Shown: positions 3,092 to 59,518 of the stretch, piece after piece
Layout of the letters: every line of letters starts with the position of its first letter
How positions within the stretch are numbered: the first letter of the stretch is position 1
Assembly: GCA_963784415.1 (NCBI GenBank)
Contig: CAWARK010000001.1
Span: forward strand, 10,335-74,334
Direction: 5' to 3'
Length of the DNA: 64,000 nucleotides
Source of the DNA: an uncultured Alphaproteobacteria bacterium
Lineage (GTDB): Bacteria > Pseudomonadota > Alphaproteobacteria > Caulobacterales > Hyphomonadaceae
Position numbers and translations under genes: made by a program
The notes under the pieces: generated by a model
What the model was told of the DNA's origin: nothing
The model's input: the letters and a program-made list of their open reading frames with translations, nothing else
The model's database searches: none

Positions 3092-3153
3092 GCACGTCAA
3101 TGTGGCCCTTCGCAGACGCCAAGCAAGACGCATCCGGGAAGGTGAGCAAAACG

Positions 3154-4323
3154 TCAGAATTTGTGAGCGAGTTGCGCGGGCCTGTCTTTCCGGGAGTTCA
3201 TCTTGAGGCCGAAAAGCGCGCGGAGCAGACCGATATGCCGGATGACGAGGTGGTAGATCGCCAGCGGGATCAGCAGGGCAGCCGATATCAGCAGCGGATA
3301 TTCCAGCCAGAGCGGGAGATGCGCCTGCTCGGCGCCGAGCGCCGCGGCGACGACGATGGGCTGGTGCAGCAGGTAGACGGGCATGATGGCGTCGCTGAGG
3401 TAGCGGAGCTGTGGCGAGTCGTGATTGAGCGTCGTTGAGGCCCAGCCAAGGATCGCGAGCAGGGCGGCTGCGCCATAGAGGCCATCAGCCAGGCCTGTCT
3501 GCCACGCGGGCAGGGTGTGGGCGGAGAGCGTGTCTGCCGCCGCCACGCCCACGGCTGCAAGCATCAGGGTCAGAGCAAGCGGCGTCAGCCATTTGCGCGC
3601 GGCGTTGAGCTGGCGCCAGAAGCTGTCCGAGCGCGCAAACATCAGGCCCAGCAGGAAGGGCGGCAGCGCGCGGAGGTGTCCTGCGGGGTCGTCGAAGAAC
3701 ATGTCGGTGCGGCCGAACGCCGGCTTGAGCACGGCGTCGGAGAGCACGAACAGCGCGGCGATGCCGACGGCCAGCGCGGCAATGGGAAGACGTTCGAGCG
3801 AGGCTTCGATGCGCATCCAGCTGCGCGGCGCAAACCGCCACGCCAGGCCGGCGGCGAGCGCGTAGGCCAAAAGGTAGGCGAGAAACCAGACATGGCCGAG
3901 GTCGGGCAGGTGGAAGCCGAAGACCGTGTGGGCGTGCAGCGGCGTACGCTCGACATAGGCGATGTAGCTGCTGCCGCGCGCCAACGGGTCGGTCATGTAC
4001 CACATGGGCGGCACGAGCAGGACGACCGCCATGAGGAACGGCACGCCGAGGCGGAGGAAGCGGTTGACGGCAAATGTCGAAAGATCGCGGCTTGCGAGCA
4101 TGAAGCGCGTCGCGGCGCCGCCGATGAAGAAGACGAGCGACATGCGCCAGGGCGCGAGCGCTTCGACGATGAGGTCGCCCCACAGGCCGGCATGCTCGCT
4201 GTGCACGCGCCATCCCGTCGTGCGGAAGATGAAGGTGACGTGCGTCAGGATCAGCAGGCCGAGTGCGCCGACGCGCAGCCAGTCGAGATCGCTTCTGCGT
4301 GCTGGCGACGGGACGCCGGGCAT
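3154..4323 (-). CDS. Acyltransferase family 3 (OpgC-like) membrane protein
   Basis: Multi-pass hydrophobic protein with the N-terminal [20 protein letters not shown] signature typical of acyltransferase_3. Start chosen at MPGVPSP. Confidence 0.7.
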
Positions 4324-4484
4324 AAGTCTGTTCCTGCAAAGTCCCCCAGTAGTTTCACGCACAAATCAAGCCAGCCCGGCGTTTACCGATGCTTAATTGC
4401 AGTTGAGAGGACAAAGGTCGCAGAATTATCGCAACGCCTAACGCCAAGGTGGAATCCGCTCGCTGGCGACGCGAGCGGTGCTTA

Positions 4485-4518
4485 GGCAGCTATCGATCCG
4501 GGGCAGCTATCGATCCGG
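4485..4518. repeat. Perfect 17-bp tandem duplication (GGCAGCTATCGATCCGG x2)
   Basis: Read directly from the sequence. It is intergenic, just downstream of the 4533 stop. Confidence 0.85.
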
Positions 4519-4532
4519 AAGGCTGATGGCCG

Positions 4533-5060
4533 TTATTGGACGTTGACGGTGATCTTGTCGGACATGATCGCCGCGGGCTTGTGCAGCTCGTGGTTCATGT
4601 CGCCGAAGACGAGTTGCAGCGTGTGCGGCCCGGGCGGGAGTTGCAGCACGACTTCCGTCTGGCCGCCGCCGAAATGCATGTGCTTGTCATCCTTCGGGAT
4701 GGCGAACTGCTTTTCTTCATCGCTGAGCGTCGTGTCGATCAGGAGGTGGTGGTGGCCCGTGTTGGGCGTGTTGGTGAGCGCGGGCGCGACGCCGATGCCA
4801 TAGGCGCCGAAGACGACGCGGAAGCTCTGCGGTACGGTCATGCCATCGTGCAGGTTGACGAAGTAGACGGCGGGGCCGGGCGTCGCGTGCAACGCCACGG
4901 CGTTCGCCTCCATGTCGCTGATCGTCTGTTCGAGGCTGACGATCCGGTCGGCGGCTTTCGATTCAGCTTCGGTCGCGACGGTCTCGGCGGGCTTGCTTTC
5001 GGTACAGGCGGCGAAGGCGAGCGCAAGGACGGGTGCGGCGAGGAAGACGGCGAGGCGCAT
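4533..5060 (-). CDS. DUF4399-like exported lipoprotein
   Basis: Signal plus lipobox MRLAVFLAAPVLALAFAAC. GHHHLLID and HFGGGQTE motifs are as in DUF4399 proteins. Confidence 0.7.
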   Translation of the reverse strand: MRLAVFLAAPVLALAFAACTESKPAETVATEAESKAADRIVSLEQTISDMEANAVALHATPGPAVYFVNLHDGMTVPQSFRVVFGAYGIGVAPALTNTPNTGHHHLLIDTTLSDEEKQFAIPKDDKHMHFGGGQTEVVLQLPPGPHTLQLVFGDMNHELHKPAAIMSDKITVNVQ

Positions 5061-46518: not shown

Positions 46519-47779
46519 ATGAGACGCACACACATGGCGGCCCTGCTTGCTGCGCTTGCGGCAATCGCGTGTAGCCCCGACACGCCCGCCGTAACCGCGA
46601 CCGCGCCCGCCGCTGCCGAGGTGGAAACCGATCCCGCGATCGCGCCAGTCGAGCCGCTCAACTACGCCGACGCAGCCAACTGGCTCTGCCGCCCCGAAAC
46701 GCAGGACGCCTGCGAGCAGGTCGCAACTGTCACCAGCATCTCCACCGATGGCGTGCTGTCCAAAGAGAGCGTTCACCCCCGCCGCCAATCCGCCGGTCGA
46801 CTGTTTCTACGTCTACCCCACCATCTCGCGCGACCTCGGCGGCAATGCCGATGCAAAACCCGGCGCGGAGGAAGCCGAGATCATCCGCCAGCAGGCCGTT
46901 CGCTTCGGCGCCGACTGCCGCCTCTTCGTGCCGCTCTACCGGCAAGTGACCTTCACCGCCCTCCGCAAACTCCGCGCCGGAGAAGATGTCGAGACAGATC
47001 GCGAGATGGCCTATGCCGACGTGAAGGCCGCATGGCATCGCTATCTCGCGAACGACAATGCCGGCCGTGGCTTCGTGCTGATCGGTCACGACCAGGGCGC
47101 CGGCATCCTCACGCGCCTCATCGCCAGCGAGATCGACGGACAGCCGATCCAGTCGCAACTTGTGTCCGCACTTCTCATCGGCGGCCCGGTTGAAATACCC
47201 GAAGCCCTCTCCGCCGGCGGGTCCTTCCGCACCATCCCGCTGTGTGCGCCCGGCAAGGGCCCCGGTTGCGTCATCGCTTACTCCGCCTTCCGCGCCGACT
47301 CCCCGCCGCCCGCCGACTCGCTCTTCGGCGCCGCCGCCACCACAGGCATGCGCGCCGCCTGCGTGAACCCGGCTGACCTCTATGATGGCGGCGGCGTGCT
47401 GAAACCCATCATGCCCGCCGGTCCCGTCCTGTTCGACGAACTCGCCCCGCCGACGCCGTGGACCACCGACAACCCCGCAATCGAAACGCCCTTCGTCGCG
47501 CTGCCCGGCCTGCTCACTGCGCGCTGCATCAACAAGGGCGGCTTCAACTATCTCGCCGTCACCATCAACGCCGACCCGCTGGACAAGCGCACGGACGCGA
47601 TCGGCGGCGACGTCGTGGTCAATGGTTCGCTCCGCCCGCTCTGGGGCCTGCACATCGTCGACATGCACCTCGCCATGGGCAACCTCGTCGACATCGTCGC
47701 GCGCCAGTCCGCCGAATGGCGCAAGGCGCAGAAGCCCGGCAGCACACTGCCCGAGGCGTTCCACGGCGACGACCACTAG
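46519..47779 (+). pseudogene. DUF3089-like alpha/beta-fold lipoprotein; frame broken as sequenced (+1 near 46745-46775)
   Basis: Lipoprotein start MRRTHMAALLAALAAIAC is in ORF 46519..47193. The body is ORF 46748..47779 (PPVDCFYVYPT..., LIGHDQGAG). 1261 nt is 3n+1. Confidence 0.75.
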
Positions 47780-55689: not shown

Positions 55690-55712
55690 CGCGTTTGAGC
55701 GCCCACACCGCC

Positions 55713-55954
55713 GTCACTCCGGACGCGCGCAGCGCGAGCCGGAACCCAGGAGCCCCGCGCACGGTCCTGGAAACGGACCTCAGGTCCGTGTTCCCCGCGA
55801 AGGCGGGGATCCCGTCTTTGCGCGCAGCGCAAACCTCTTCGGCAACGCCTCCACTTGTCATCCCGGAAGCCGCACAGCGCTATCCGGGACCCATTTCTCT
55901 ACCCCGACACCTGACGAATGGGTCCCGGCTCGCGCTCCGCTCGGCCGGGATGAC
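55713..55954. repeat. Cluster of REP hairpins (GTCA(C/T)(T/C)CCGGA...TCCGGGA type)
   Basis: GTCACTCCGGACGCGCGCAGCGCGAGCCGGAACCC lies at about 55713-55750 and CCCCGCGAAGGCGGGG at about 55793-55808. GTCATCCCGGAAGCCGCACAGCGCTATCCGGGACCC (55857-55892) has an inverted partner GGGTCCCGGCTCGCGCTCCGCTCGGCCGGGATGAC (55920-55954). Confidence 0.6.
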
Positions 55955-56125
55955 AACCGCGCTATGGGCGACAAGAGTTACACCCCATTTTGTTGGATGA
56001 GATCCGCACTTATCCAGCAGCCCGCGTTTCCGCGTCTCCAGCAATCTCAATGACTTGCGCGAAAAATAGGGTGGATTGGCGTTCGGCAAATCGGCCGGGC
56101 TCCGGGCGCACGTATAGTGGCGGCC

Positions 56126-56620
56126 ATGAAACGCAAAGGCTGGCCCATCTGGCTGCTGCGTGACATCCCGGCCTTCCTGGGTGTCATGCTCAGCTTCTGG
56201 CCGCTGGTGATCCTCCTGATCTCCAGCGAACGCCGAGTCATGCGCGGAAAGACGCTTCGCAGGTCCGTGTTCGAGACCATCGCCCTCCTGCTCGCCCACG
56301 CCGAAGCGCGCCTCACCTTCGCGCTCACGCGCCAGGCCTACCGCCGGCTCGGCTGGAACCCCCGCCTCGTGCGCTTCAATCTCATCCCCGCCACCTACAA
56401 CCTGCGCGAAGTGCAGGAGCGCTACGCGAATTACGTGAACGCGTTCGGCGACATGAACGCCGTCGTCGAGACGTACATCGAAGACATCCGCCAGCGGTAT
56501 CGCATCGCGGAACGCGACCTCGTCGCCCATGGTTCGACGGACGCGCGGCAGAGCCGCGCTGCTCACCATGAGCTGGTGGGCGCCTCATCGTGCGCCACAT
56601 CCCCCTTGCGCTCATCCTGA
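56126..56620 (+). CDS. Hypothetical membrane-anchored protein; its 3' end runs into REP units
   Basis: GC3-rich ORF (MKRKGWPIWLLRDIPAFLGVMLSFWPLVILLI...). The last 30 or so codons coincide with REP sequence (56528-56572 and 56611-56655), so the true stop is uncertain. Confidence 0.45.
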   Translation: MKRKGWPIWLLRDIPAFLGVMLSFWPLVILLISSERRVMRGKTLRRSVFETIALLLAHAEARLTFALTRQAYRRLGWNPRLVRFNLIPATYNLREVQERYANYVNAFGDMNAVVETYIEDIRQRYRIAERDLVAHGSTDARQSRAAHHELVGASSCATSPLRSS

Positions 56621-56759
56621 GCAGCGCCCGCAGGGCGCGTCCGTCGAAGGACGAGCGCGGCCACGCGCACGCACGTGGGCCTCCGCTGCATCCAAATTTC
56701 GGAAAACCAAACCCCAACCCACCTCGCACGCCCCGCGCGCGAGGCCGCACCCGCATGCA

Positions 56760-56796
56760 CAAACAAAAACCCCGGAGCGCTTTCACGCTCCGGGGT
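56760..56796 (-). terminator. Rho-independent terminator after the 56822 gene
   Basis: Minus strand reads CCCCGGAGCG-tgaaag-CGCTCCGGGG followed by TTTTTGTTT. Confidence 0.75.
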
Positions 56797-56821: not shown

Positions 56822-57972
56822 TCAGCTGAAGCCGATCCAGCGTCCGCCGGCTGCCGTGGCGACCCAGCTGAGGATCGACATCACCGCGATCATCTTCGCG
56901 ATGCGGCCGCCTGCCGTGGCGTCGTCCTTGTAGATCTCGTAGCCGGTGAGGCCGATCAGCACGAGGCCACCCAGAACGCTGCGCGCGATGCCGAGGTTCT
57001 TCAGCTCCCCCGAGAAGCTGTCGAGACCAGCCACCACATAGCCTTCCAGCACCGTGCCGAACATCACGATGAAGCCGATGCCGGCGATGATCCGCGTCCG
57101 CTTGCCGAACAGCAGCAGCACGGCATAACCCGCCGTCAGCACGTGGAATGTGCCGGGGCTGATGCCTTCGGCGGTCGAGAACACGCCCATGGCAAAGAAG
57201 AAGATCAGCATGGCGATCGCGCCGATGATCATCGCCACGAGGTCGACTTTTCCGTCCGCCTTGGAGATGCGGTTGACGACGCCGAACGTGAAGATCAGCG
57301 CCGCCAGCATCGAGACCATCTTCACGAAGAAGGACTGCGATGTGTACAGCCGCTCCGCGTTGAGGCCGCCGATCACAAGCCCGGTGCCGATGACGATCGA
57401 CGGAAGCCGATGCCCGCGATGACCCGCGTCCGCTTGCCGAACAGCAGCAGCACGGCATAACCCGCCGTCAGCACGTGGAATGTGCCGGGGCTGATGCCTT
57501 CGGCGGTCGAGAACACGCCCATGGCAAAGAAGAAGATCAGCATGGCGATCGCGCCGATGATCATCGCCACGAGATCAACTTTTCCATCCGCCTTGGAGAT
57601 GCGGTTGACCACGCCGAACGTGAAGATCAGCGCCGCCAGCATCGAGACCATCTTCACGAAGAAGGACTGCGATGTGTACAGCCGCTCCGCGTTGAGGCCG
57701 CCGATCACAAGGCCGGTGCCGATTACGATGCAGGCGCCGACGATGTGCCAGACGCGCAGGTTGCGCTCGACTTCCGACGGCGTTTCATCCGTCAGGCCCG
57801 CGCCGAGAAGGCGAAGGCAGGTCAGGATCACGCAGCCGCCGAGCAGGGCGAGGCCGAGCAGGTGGATGGCGCCGAACGGGGCGTAGAGGTCGCCGAGATA
57901 AACGTAGGGCGGGACCTTGCCGAGATTGTGGACCCAGTCAGCTGCGCCCGGAAAGAATTTTGCGAAATCCAT
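56822..57972 (-). pseudogene. Multi-pass membrane protein split into two ORFs by an internal 332-bp tandem duplication
   Basis: ORF 57373..57972 (199 aa) and ORF 56822..57376 (184 aa) share a module of about 105 aa that is identical except for one residue (IGGLNAERLY...FGKRTR(V/I)IAGIGF). Removing one repeat copy gives a single protein of about 270 aa. The N-terminus has FGAIHLLGLALLGGCVILTCLRLLG. Confidence 0.7.
57071..57734. repeat. Direct tandem duplication, 2 x 332 bp, about 97-98% identical
   Basis: Three anchors give a constant offset of 332: GAAGCCGATG at 57071 and 57403, CATGGCAAAG at 57188 and 57520, GATCACAAG at 57371 and 57703. I found about 8 mismatches by hand alignment. Confidence 0.9.
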
Positions 57973-57975
57973 GGA

Positions 57976-58833
57976 TCAGCCTCCCTGGCCAGGTGTCGGT
58001 TGCGCAGGCGCCGGTTGAGCAGGCGGCGTTGCCGGGAATACCGCATTGGGATCCGGCGGACTTTCATCTGTGGGCGCGGTGTCCGTCTCGTCGGCCGGAG
58101 CTTCATCCGCAGGCGGCGCATCCATGCTCATCTTGCCGCCATTGGCGAGCGGATCGACGTCGTCGTTCAGCATCTCCTCGTCCTCGAGCGATTCTTCGTT
58201 CTCGCCGTCGGTGTAGAGGTTCGCGCATTCGGCGAAGGCATAGAGGATCGAGCTGGGTTGCAGCTTGTCGCACTTGTACCAGTCATACGCGATGAAGCGA
58301 CCGAAGATGATCACGAGGATCCAGCACGCCATCGAGATCGCGCCGGAGAGGCGGACCTTCATCGGCGGCGTCGGCATCGCGTCCCACTCCGCCTGGCTCG
58401 TCTGAACCTTGAAGTGGAACCAGAAGATGTTGATCGACGCGATGACCAGGAAGATCATCTTCAGGCGGAACCAGACGTCGTGATAATAGAACGTCGCCGG
58501 CTGGCGTCCGAAGAACGTGACGAGACCCGTGAACACCATCATGCCGAACGCCATCATGGTGATGGGCAGCACTTTGTCGTTCAGGCGCGAGAACGGCACG
58601 TTGCGGAACGCAAAGCCCATCATGCGCAGGTCGATGATCCAGATCGTCCCCGCGAAGAACATCAACGTCAGCACGTGCGTGCCTTCGAAGAGGTTCCAGA
58701 GGTTCTGGGAATTGTTCAGCGCCTGCGACCAGGACAGCGCGCCTTCCTCGGTCCCTTTGCCAAGGTCGTATTGCAGCCATGAAAAGAAATCGTGGAACAA
58801 TCTCGTCTCTCCCCTGGGGGTCCCGCATTTCAC
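57976..58833 (-). CDS. Multi-pass membrane protein of unknown function with an acidic Pro-rich C-terminal tail
   Basis: EGTHVLTLMFFAGTIWIIDLRMMGF resembles the HLLGLALLGG...LRLLG motif of the downstream gene. The start may be TTG 58800, which follows AGGGGAGAG. The stop lies 3 nt before the downstream ATG. Confidence 0.75.
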   Translation of the reverse strand: MKCGTPRGETRLFHDFFSWLQYDLGKGTEEGALSWSQALNNSQNLWNLFEGTHVLTLMFFAGTIWIIDLRMMGFAFRNVPFSRLNDKVLPITMMAFGMMVFTGLVTFFGRQPATFYYHDVWFRLKMIFLVIASINIFWFHFKVQTSQAEWDAMPTPPMKVRLSGAISMACWILVIIFGRFIAYDWYKCDKLQPSSILYAFAECANLYTDGENEESLEDEEMLNDDVDPLANGGKMSMDAPPADEAPADETDTAPTDESPPDPNAVFPATPPAQPAPAQPTPGQGG

Positions 58834-58899
58834 GGTGACCCCGATAGCAGTCCGTCAGCCTTGAGGGCCTTCAGCGCTGCTCGTCAAGCTTCCCACAAT

Positions 58900-59518
58900 C
58901 TATTGATTGGGCAGCGGTGGCTCAGCGCGGTTGGGCAGCGGCTTCAGCGGGTCTGCTGCAGCCGGCGGTCCGTCCGCATTGGCGATATATTTCACATGGC
59001 AGCCATGGCAGGCACGATACATGTCCGTACCGGCATCAAAGAAGCCGTTTTTGTCCTTCTTTTCTGCCATGTCGCCGGCCTTCATGCCCGCTTCATTGAG
59101 CTGGTGCGCAAAGTCCACCCACGCGCGGTCGTCGTCGAGCGGACGTCCCGGCAGCAGCAGCAGGTTCGAGGCTTCGGCGACTGTGCGCGCCGCGTTCTCG
59201 GCAGCGATCCAGCCATCATCGTCGGTCGGGAAAAGTTCCTGCACCGTGTCGCCGATGATCCAGCCCTGACGGTGCCAGACCTCGAAGGCGTTGTAGTCCA
59301 TCACGTGGCCCATCAACTCTTTCAGGTCGAGCGATGTGCGGAAGTCGGCCAGTCGTCGCGCCGCCCATGCCTTCGCCGGGCGTCGAGCCTGCGGGCGCTT
59401 TCGACACGACTTCGTCGTCGGACCCGCCGCCGCCACAGGCTGCGAGACCAAGACTTCCAATGCTCAAAGCTAAAGCCAGCGCGAGAACACGCGCCGAGGA
59501 CGAACGGATCATTGCCAC
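58900..59518 (-). pseudogene. Lipoprotein cytochrome c with C-terminal CxxCH (class II / cytochrome c'-like); frame broken as sequenced (+1 near 59340-59375)
   Basis: Lipoprotein start MAMIRSSSARVLALALALSIGSLGLAAC is in ORF 59216..59518. The helical body ...LKELMGHVMDYNAFEVWH...GTDMYRACHGCHVKYI is in ORF 58900..59460. 619 nt is 3n+1. Confidence 0.7.

Follow-up and report, generated by a model that had tools for sequence, protein, structure and literature searches.

Heterotype false duplications arise in genome assemblies from divergence between haplotypes (Ko et al. 2022, Genome Biol 23:205, PMC9516828). Long-read metagenome assemblers, for their part, concatenate variants that are specific to subpopulations, rely on single-read backbones and generate duplications that are found in no read (Trigodet et al. 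2025, bioRxiv 10.1101/2025.04.22.649783). The described cases are mostly of kilobase scale, often flank gaps and were proven by read depth and k-mers. Tandem copies of a sequence can also be produced by homology-facilitated illegitimate recombination, a process described for Acinetobacter and Streptococcus pneumoniae, the known products of which usually insert foreign DNA or sit harmlessly. Near-identical direct repeats are expected to be collapsed quickly by RecA-dependent deletion.

The locus analysed here resembles both systems in part. As in described false duplications, two allelic versions stand adjacent in one contig with natural polymorphisms between the copies, and a gene would be falsely gained or broken where co-assembled haplotypes or strains diverge, polishing bringing no repair. 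Unlike the described cases, the repeat is only 327 bp long, shows no gap, carries five filler bases and a microhomology at its borders, and is interpreted here from the assembled contig rather than from reads. The likeness to homology-facilitated illegitimate recombination would lie in a donor allele joined to resident DNA at a microhomology, with homology on the opposite side, an event that would leave tandem donor and resident copies differing at silent sites. Unlike the known products of that process, however, the present arrangement would cut a conserved gene within two helices, and it contains filler bases.

The window, a stretch of 64,000 nucleotides, belongs to an uncultured alphaproteobacterium of the Hyphomonadaceae (GenBank assembly GCA_963784415.1, contig CAWARK010000001.1, here C1, positions 10335-74334). 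The gene concerned is a member of DUF6644 (PF20349), a family of uncharacterised polytopic membrane proteins; the 155 positions of the Pfam model cover only part of the subfamily of 272 aa and eight helices considered here. The features to which we refer are the following (positions in the window):

56822..57376, minus strand: ORF2, 184 aa, with an internal GTG start, spanning the end of TM2 to TM8
57066..57071, no strand: microhomology ACGATG, outside or at the left edge of copy 1, read from the sequence
57071..57397, minus strand: copy 1 of the module, second in gene direction, 327 bp
57373..57972, minus strand: ORF1, 199 aa, with residues 1-190 (TM1-TM5 and the start of TM6) and a 9-residue out-of-frame tail, RRSSSAPGL
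57398..57402, no strand: filler CGACG, 5 bp between the copies, CGTCG on the gene strand
57403..57729, minus strand: copy 2 of the module, first in gene direction, codons 82-190 of the DUF6644 gene
57976..58833, minus strand: DUF6644 paralogue, upstream in the same operon, an intact membrane-protein gene
58900..59518, minus strand: CHGCH haem-c lipoprotein, first gene of the operon, with a 1-nt insertion near 59355 relative to the related loci L015 and L016
57083, 57091, 57242, 57245, 57254, 57278, 57380 and 57392 (copy-1 coordinates): sites of mismatch between the copies

Tandem Repeats Finder reported a repeat at 57071-57729 with a period of 332, 2.0 copies, 97% matches and 0 indels, and a separate repeat search of the window gave the same start-to-start spacing of 332 between the copies. 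The original prediction had described two adjacent copies of 332 bp. The repeat and its offset are indeed present, but the copy length is not 332: an offset scan combined with a codon comparison yielded a unit of 327 bp, or 109 whole codons read in frame with the minus-strand gene (residues 82-190), to which 5 bp of filler are added. The period of 332 and the break in the frame are thus due to the filler alone, the 327-bp unit itself being in frame. The earlier explanation that the gene is split because 332 is not a multiple of 3 consequently applies to the five filler bases and not to the unit, and even this argument calls for caution, because these bases sit in an assembly with approximately one frameshift per 3 kb. 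The hexamer ACGATG occurs again at 57725-57730, on the right edge of copy 2, and on either side of the ancestral module it forms a 6-bp direct repeat spaced 327 bp apart. ACGAT(G) is found at the two outer borders and again where copy 1 ends, but the joint itself carries five extra bases. No third copy of the module was found in the genome.

The two reading frames generated by this arrangement are as originally described: ORF1 terminates in ...AGIGFRRSSSAPGL followed by its stop codon, and the protein resumes at IGGLNAERLY, the N-terminus of ORF2 being MIGGLNAERLY from a GTG start codon. The stop of ORF1 and the start of ORF2 overlap as GTGA. Upstream of ORF2, no Shine-Dalgarno-like sequence was found, and no slippery heptamer X XXY YYZ occurs at the joint (GGC TTC CGT CGA TCG TCA). 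A programmed ribosomal frameshift was rejected, as the joint lacks such a site; an RNA element was likewise rejected, Rfam having returned only sub-threshold chance matches at the locus. Both ORFs match Pfam DUF6644 (58.4 bits for ORF1 and 34.7 bits for ORF2, against a cut-off of 27), and neither has a match in NCBIfam.

When one unit is removed, a 272-aa single-copy protein is restored, which can be aligned from end to end with homologues of 272-279 aa. An AlphaFold2 model of P0008, the single-copy orthologue at locus L015 (pLDDT 84), contains eight long helices, predicted at residues 27-55, 65-93, 102-127, 134-156, 162-178, 183-203, 211-238 and 245-265. Comparison of this model with the PDB by Foldseek gave no meaningful match (best E 0.3, TM below 0.32). 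Each breakpoint interrupts a predicted helix, residue 82 belonging to helix 65-93 (TM2) and residue 190 to helix 183-203 (TM6). On the predicted structure, the module does not correspond to a structural unit, as it extends from mid-TM2 to the beginning of TM6, and the gene is split away from any domain boundary. Within the 272-aa subfamily, seven residues are invariant (H37, R54, W75, N94, K107, R267 and W268), and an eighth, H166, is almost so.

Across the relatives, the gene is found in one piece. Every full-length match in the 24 genomes of the genus that possess the gene lies in an uninterrupted frame of at least 272 aa, and more than 70 database homologues measure 272-279 aa, the 23 that were aligned matching over the whole length. 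The closest homologue, P0008, is 96% identical in DNA. The 199-aa product of ORF1 stands alone in its cluster, on this contig only, among approximately 15 billion proteins, and the 26-nt junction had no match in collections of genome contigs and metagenome contigs from which the window's own record was left out. An environmental contig of 515 nt from run X8, approximately 95% identical, displays the left flank (...GAACATCACGAT), one copy of the module and the right flank, and no contig crossing the joint was recovered in eight related metagenomes. These related public runs, freshwater and sediment metagenomes of which none was a Nanopore run or the source, matched at most 0.45 of the words. 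Their strains are others, approximately 95% identical, in which differences at 57122, 57128, 57260 and 57263 are fixed. For this reason the missing junction is hardly informative on the strain of the window itself; what these runs show is how the population normally looks. When neighbouring proteins were looked up exactly, no independent assembly of the same strain was retrieved, only a 94%-identical contig or nothing, and absence from relatives and from other assemblies is to be read as weaker than a same-strain test, the comparisons having used other strains. No strain switch appeared at the joint in the comparison with L015 (approximately 92-93% on both sides) or as a step in the identities with the relatives G023 and G005, all three being too distant to reveal one.

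The two copies differ by 8 mismatches and no indel (approximately 2.4% apart, 97.6% identity). Seven of these are synonymous third-position changes and one exchanges Val and Ile; the Val/Ile replacement had been recognized in the first count of 7 differences, of which 6 synonymous, and these two totals are here corrected to 8 and 7. By the Nei-Gojobori method, dS between the copies is 0.086 and dN 0.0042, hence a dN/dS of 0.048, and the bias to synonymous sites on which the original prediction rested is borne out by this computation. The probability of at least 7 synonymous changes in 8 is 5e-4 under a binomial model and 6e-3 when the mutation spectrum is kept. Consensus errors were rejected as the source of the 8 differences, since random errors would not favour third codon positions. 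For the same gene, the comparison of the window with its orthologue in L015 gives a dN/dS of 0.032 (30 synonymous and 3 non-synonymous differences). The ratio between the copies is thus close to that of ordinary orthologues, which points to two natural alleles and not to two working copies. Purifying selection on both copies had been proposed; the substitutions are indeed filtered by selection, but the idea that both copies are kept functional here does not follow, as orthologues show a like dN/dS. Read codon by codon, the differences show copies that diverged as natural alleles, each while it was an intact gene.

Copy 1 has the L015 state at 6 of the 8 differing sites, and 57083 (G/C) and 57254 (G/A) are polymorphic in related environmental populations (Logan contigs). 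Five states of copy 2 (57574A, 57577A, 57586A, 57610C and 57724T) are absent from copy 1, and neither the relatives examined nor the eight related metagenomes showed any of them, save for an A matching 57586 in one X2 contig.

The quality of the assembly bears directly on how such a locus is to be read. The genome amounts to 4.46 Mb in 17 contigs with no N, and repeats of 4-8 kb are resolved inside contigs, which together indicate a long-read MAG. Between 44.6 and 64 kb of the window (approximately 20 kb), comparison with the intact ORFs of G023 and G005 revealed seven breaks, or approximately one frameshift per 3 kb, the frame switching inside conserved genes near 46770, 49678, 51506, 51950, 59355-59400, 62559 and 63590. 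The break near 59355 is a 1-nt insertion (GACTGGCC versus GATCGCC in the relative), in the lipoprotein gene 1.5 kb from the repeat. Such frame switches are probably long-read consensus indel errors. They impose caution on every ORF boundary, as the frames of this contig, and probably its small-scale structure, are not to be trusted.

Other loci of the assembly show related irregularities. On contig C3 (110228-111654; L022), a 713-bp tandem duplication of approximately 95% identity lies across the 5' end of an integrase gene, covering the first 183 codons of this tyrosine-integrase-like gene and the region upstream; its copies differ by 9 synonymous and 11 non-synonymous codons, with indels in the non-coding part, and no tRNA gene was found nearby. 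This duplication may have arisen, again as an artefact, by strain concatenation, or it may be what remains of a real island. On contig C13 (384668-384955; L023), a perfect 144-bp tandem pair contains the start of a small membrane-protein gene, and its first copy ends exactly at the end of a 4-7.6-kb repeat that occurs at three sites (on C13, on C6 and at the end of C5) at 94-98% identity and is devoid of rRNA and tRNA genes. This pair looks like an edge effect of the assembly graph. In addition, small contigs are 86-91% identical to parts of larger contigs in the assembly, which fits co-assembled related lineages.

Gene fragmentation was also observed in L016 and L017, related contigs named contig_NNNNN from the ENA assemblies ERZ25039499 and ERZ25039524, for instance in a beta-lactamase-family gene split into 261 and 148 aa and in truncated DUF6644 calls of 190 and 222 aa. 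The genus seems to be represented by further error-prone long-read metagenome assemblies of this kind.

The gene closes a conserved three-gene set (window 56822-59518, L015 and L016) composed of the CHGCH lipoprotein, a DUF6644 protein of 268-285 aa and the 272-aa DUF6644 protein, which may constitute a redox module of the membrane that is as yet uncharacterised. Past the 272-aa gene and a repeat-rich spacer comes a DUF6152 gene. Directly downstream of the DUF6644 gene, at 55700-56770 of the window (C1:66034-67103), is a mosaic repeat of approximately 1 kb, of which approximately 16 long copies (>500 bp), 80-95% identical, occur on 10 other contigs; its sub-modules recur dozens of times as partial copies. 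The 167-aa ORF within it (56117-56620, plus strand) is without a match in Pfam and the repeat without one in Rfam, the repeat possibly being a composite REP-like or small mobile element. In the relative G022, the DUF6644 gene pair occurs twice in tandem (L020, C3:44500-50500; ORFs 802-1611, 1615-2877, 3106-3771 and 3775-4605), and one member, of 420 aa, has approximately 150 residues inserted between TM4 and TM5, which include additional hydrophobic helices. The DUF6644 family thus tolerates added helices in nature.

We consider it probable that the repeat is a heterotype false duplication, or the trace of a minority-variant backbone, that arose from a mixture of strains. Most probably, then, the feature is not biological. 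Two or more strains of one Hyphomonadaceae-like species would have been present in the sample, their DUF6644 alleles being approximately 2.4% apart with almost all of the differences silent. A long-read assembler, or a single backbone read, would have joined one allele ending at codon 190 to the other allele restarting at codon 82, with the sequences 327 bp out of register and five junk bases kept at the joint. Polishing could not delete a structural error of 332 bp, and would rather pull each copy to the reads of the strain that fits it best, so that allele-like differences would be kept between the copies. The organism itself would possess one ordinary gene of 272 aa with eight transmembrane helices. 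Allele-type variants, absence elsewhere and other signs of error and mixed lineages in the assembly, which are among the marks of a heterotype duplication, are all found here. Moreover, the breakpoints lie in TM2 and TM6 of a gene under strong purifying selection, so that a real event would destroy a conserved gene, which also counts for an artefact. Among the three possibilities of the original prediction, the assembly join of two strain variants is the best, favoured by the allele-like differences and the single-copy relatives. The anatomy of the repeat, the allele-like pattern of substitutions, the single copy in every relative and the poor consensus are direct results; from them we infer that the assembly, rather than the cell, made the join, and we postulate the second strain, since five states of copy 2 are private (apart from the X2 contig at 57586), which counts against an artefact. 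So does the ease with which long reads span 660 bp, false duplications this small being uncommon, and so does the flanking repeat ACGATG, which is expected of a real microhomology event rather than of an arbitrary join; by a rough estimate, it would occur by chance at such a join approximately once in 100 in this motif-rich gene. A chimera formed during library preparation, by polymerase template switching between the strain alleles at ACGATG in an amplified low-input library, the molecule then becoming the backbone, would explain the microhomology and the two-allele make-up together, and contig sequence drawn from a single read is documented in long-read metagenome assemblies (Trigodet et al. 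2025). Nevertheless, this origin leaves the 5-bp filler unexplained and appears highly improbable; it amounts to a sub-case of the artefact, from which it is indistinguishable here.

The same microhomology is the best argument for a real duplication from two alleles, in which the cell would have taken up DNA from a related strain and come to carry donor and resident codons 82-190 in tandem, the gene being inactivated. We regard such an uptake as unlikely, although the differences between the copies are allele-like and copy 1 corresponds to a common haplotype and copy 2 to a private one, as a resident and a donor would. The recombination itself, of the homology-facilitated illegitimate type, homologous at the upstream end and illegitimate at ACGATG at the other, 327 bp out of register and with five filler bases, is a doubtful event at this locus, where the local consensus is demonstrably unreliable and where neither the product nor the junction has a counterpart elsewhere. 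It would have cut, inside two helices, a gene that is single-copy in all relatives and evolves at a dN/dS of approximately 0.03. At the level of the strain, the outcome would be a mutation of recent date, neutral or slightly harmful, which we likewise do not expect to be the case, a 327-bp direct repeat at 97.6% identity being expected to collapse fast. Conversion between paralogues within the genome, the form of recombination also evoked at first, was rejected, since the genome has no other copy of the gene to serve as donor. It is very unlikely that the rearrangement is real and selected, with purifying selection on each copy, whether as an in-frame duplication or as a true fission, two forms that we judge jointly. 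The synonymous bias would follow directly from such selection, but a dS of 0.086 implies an old event, which is absent from the relatives and from database proteins; the breakpoints lie inside helices, and tandem repeats at 97.6% identity are unstable. The in-frame form would be a 109-residue internal duplication giving a 12-helix protein of approximately 381 aa, with the filler as a consensus error. The unit comprises exactly 109 codons, at a clean joint a plausible hybrid helix (...RTRVIAGIGF-IVIGTGLVIGG...) would form and four helices would be gained with the topology preserved, the 420-aa paralogue of G022 displays the family's tolerance of extra helices, and the frame break need not be real in an assembly with unreliable frames. 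However, it is improbable that an unrelated 5-bp consensus error would coincide exactly with the joint. In the fission form, ORF1 and ORF2 would both be made, the latter by termination-reinitiation at the GTGA overlap of stop and start; yet no ribosome-binding site of the Shine-Dalgarno type was seen ahead of ORF2, and the joint has no slippery site. Gene fission, another of the options initially retained, is disfavoured by the breakpoints in TM2 and TM6 and by the missing Shine-Dalgarno-like sequence, and its split product exists on this contig only, all relatives having one gene of 272-279 aa.

If the reading as a join of two strain variants by the assembly is right, the repeat has no biological meaning, and the locus stands as a warning: in error-prone long-read MAGs, silent-only differences between tandem repeats point to mixed strains rather than to selection acting on both copies, and genes called at loci of this kind (here ‘proteins’ of 199 and 184 aa) pollute databases. 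Were the duplication real, it would be a small example of inter-strain recombination inactivating or remodelling a conserved membrane protein of unassigned function. In the very improbable case of a selected rearrangement, it would represent a young, strain-level example of polytopic membrane proteins growing or splitting through the duplication of helix bundles.
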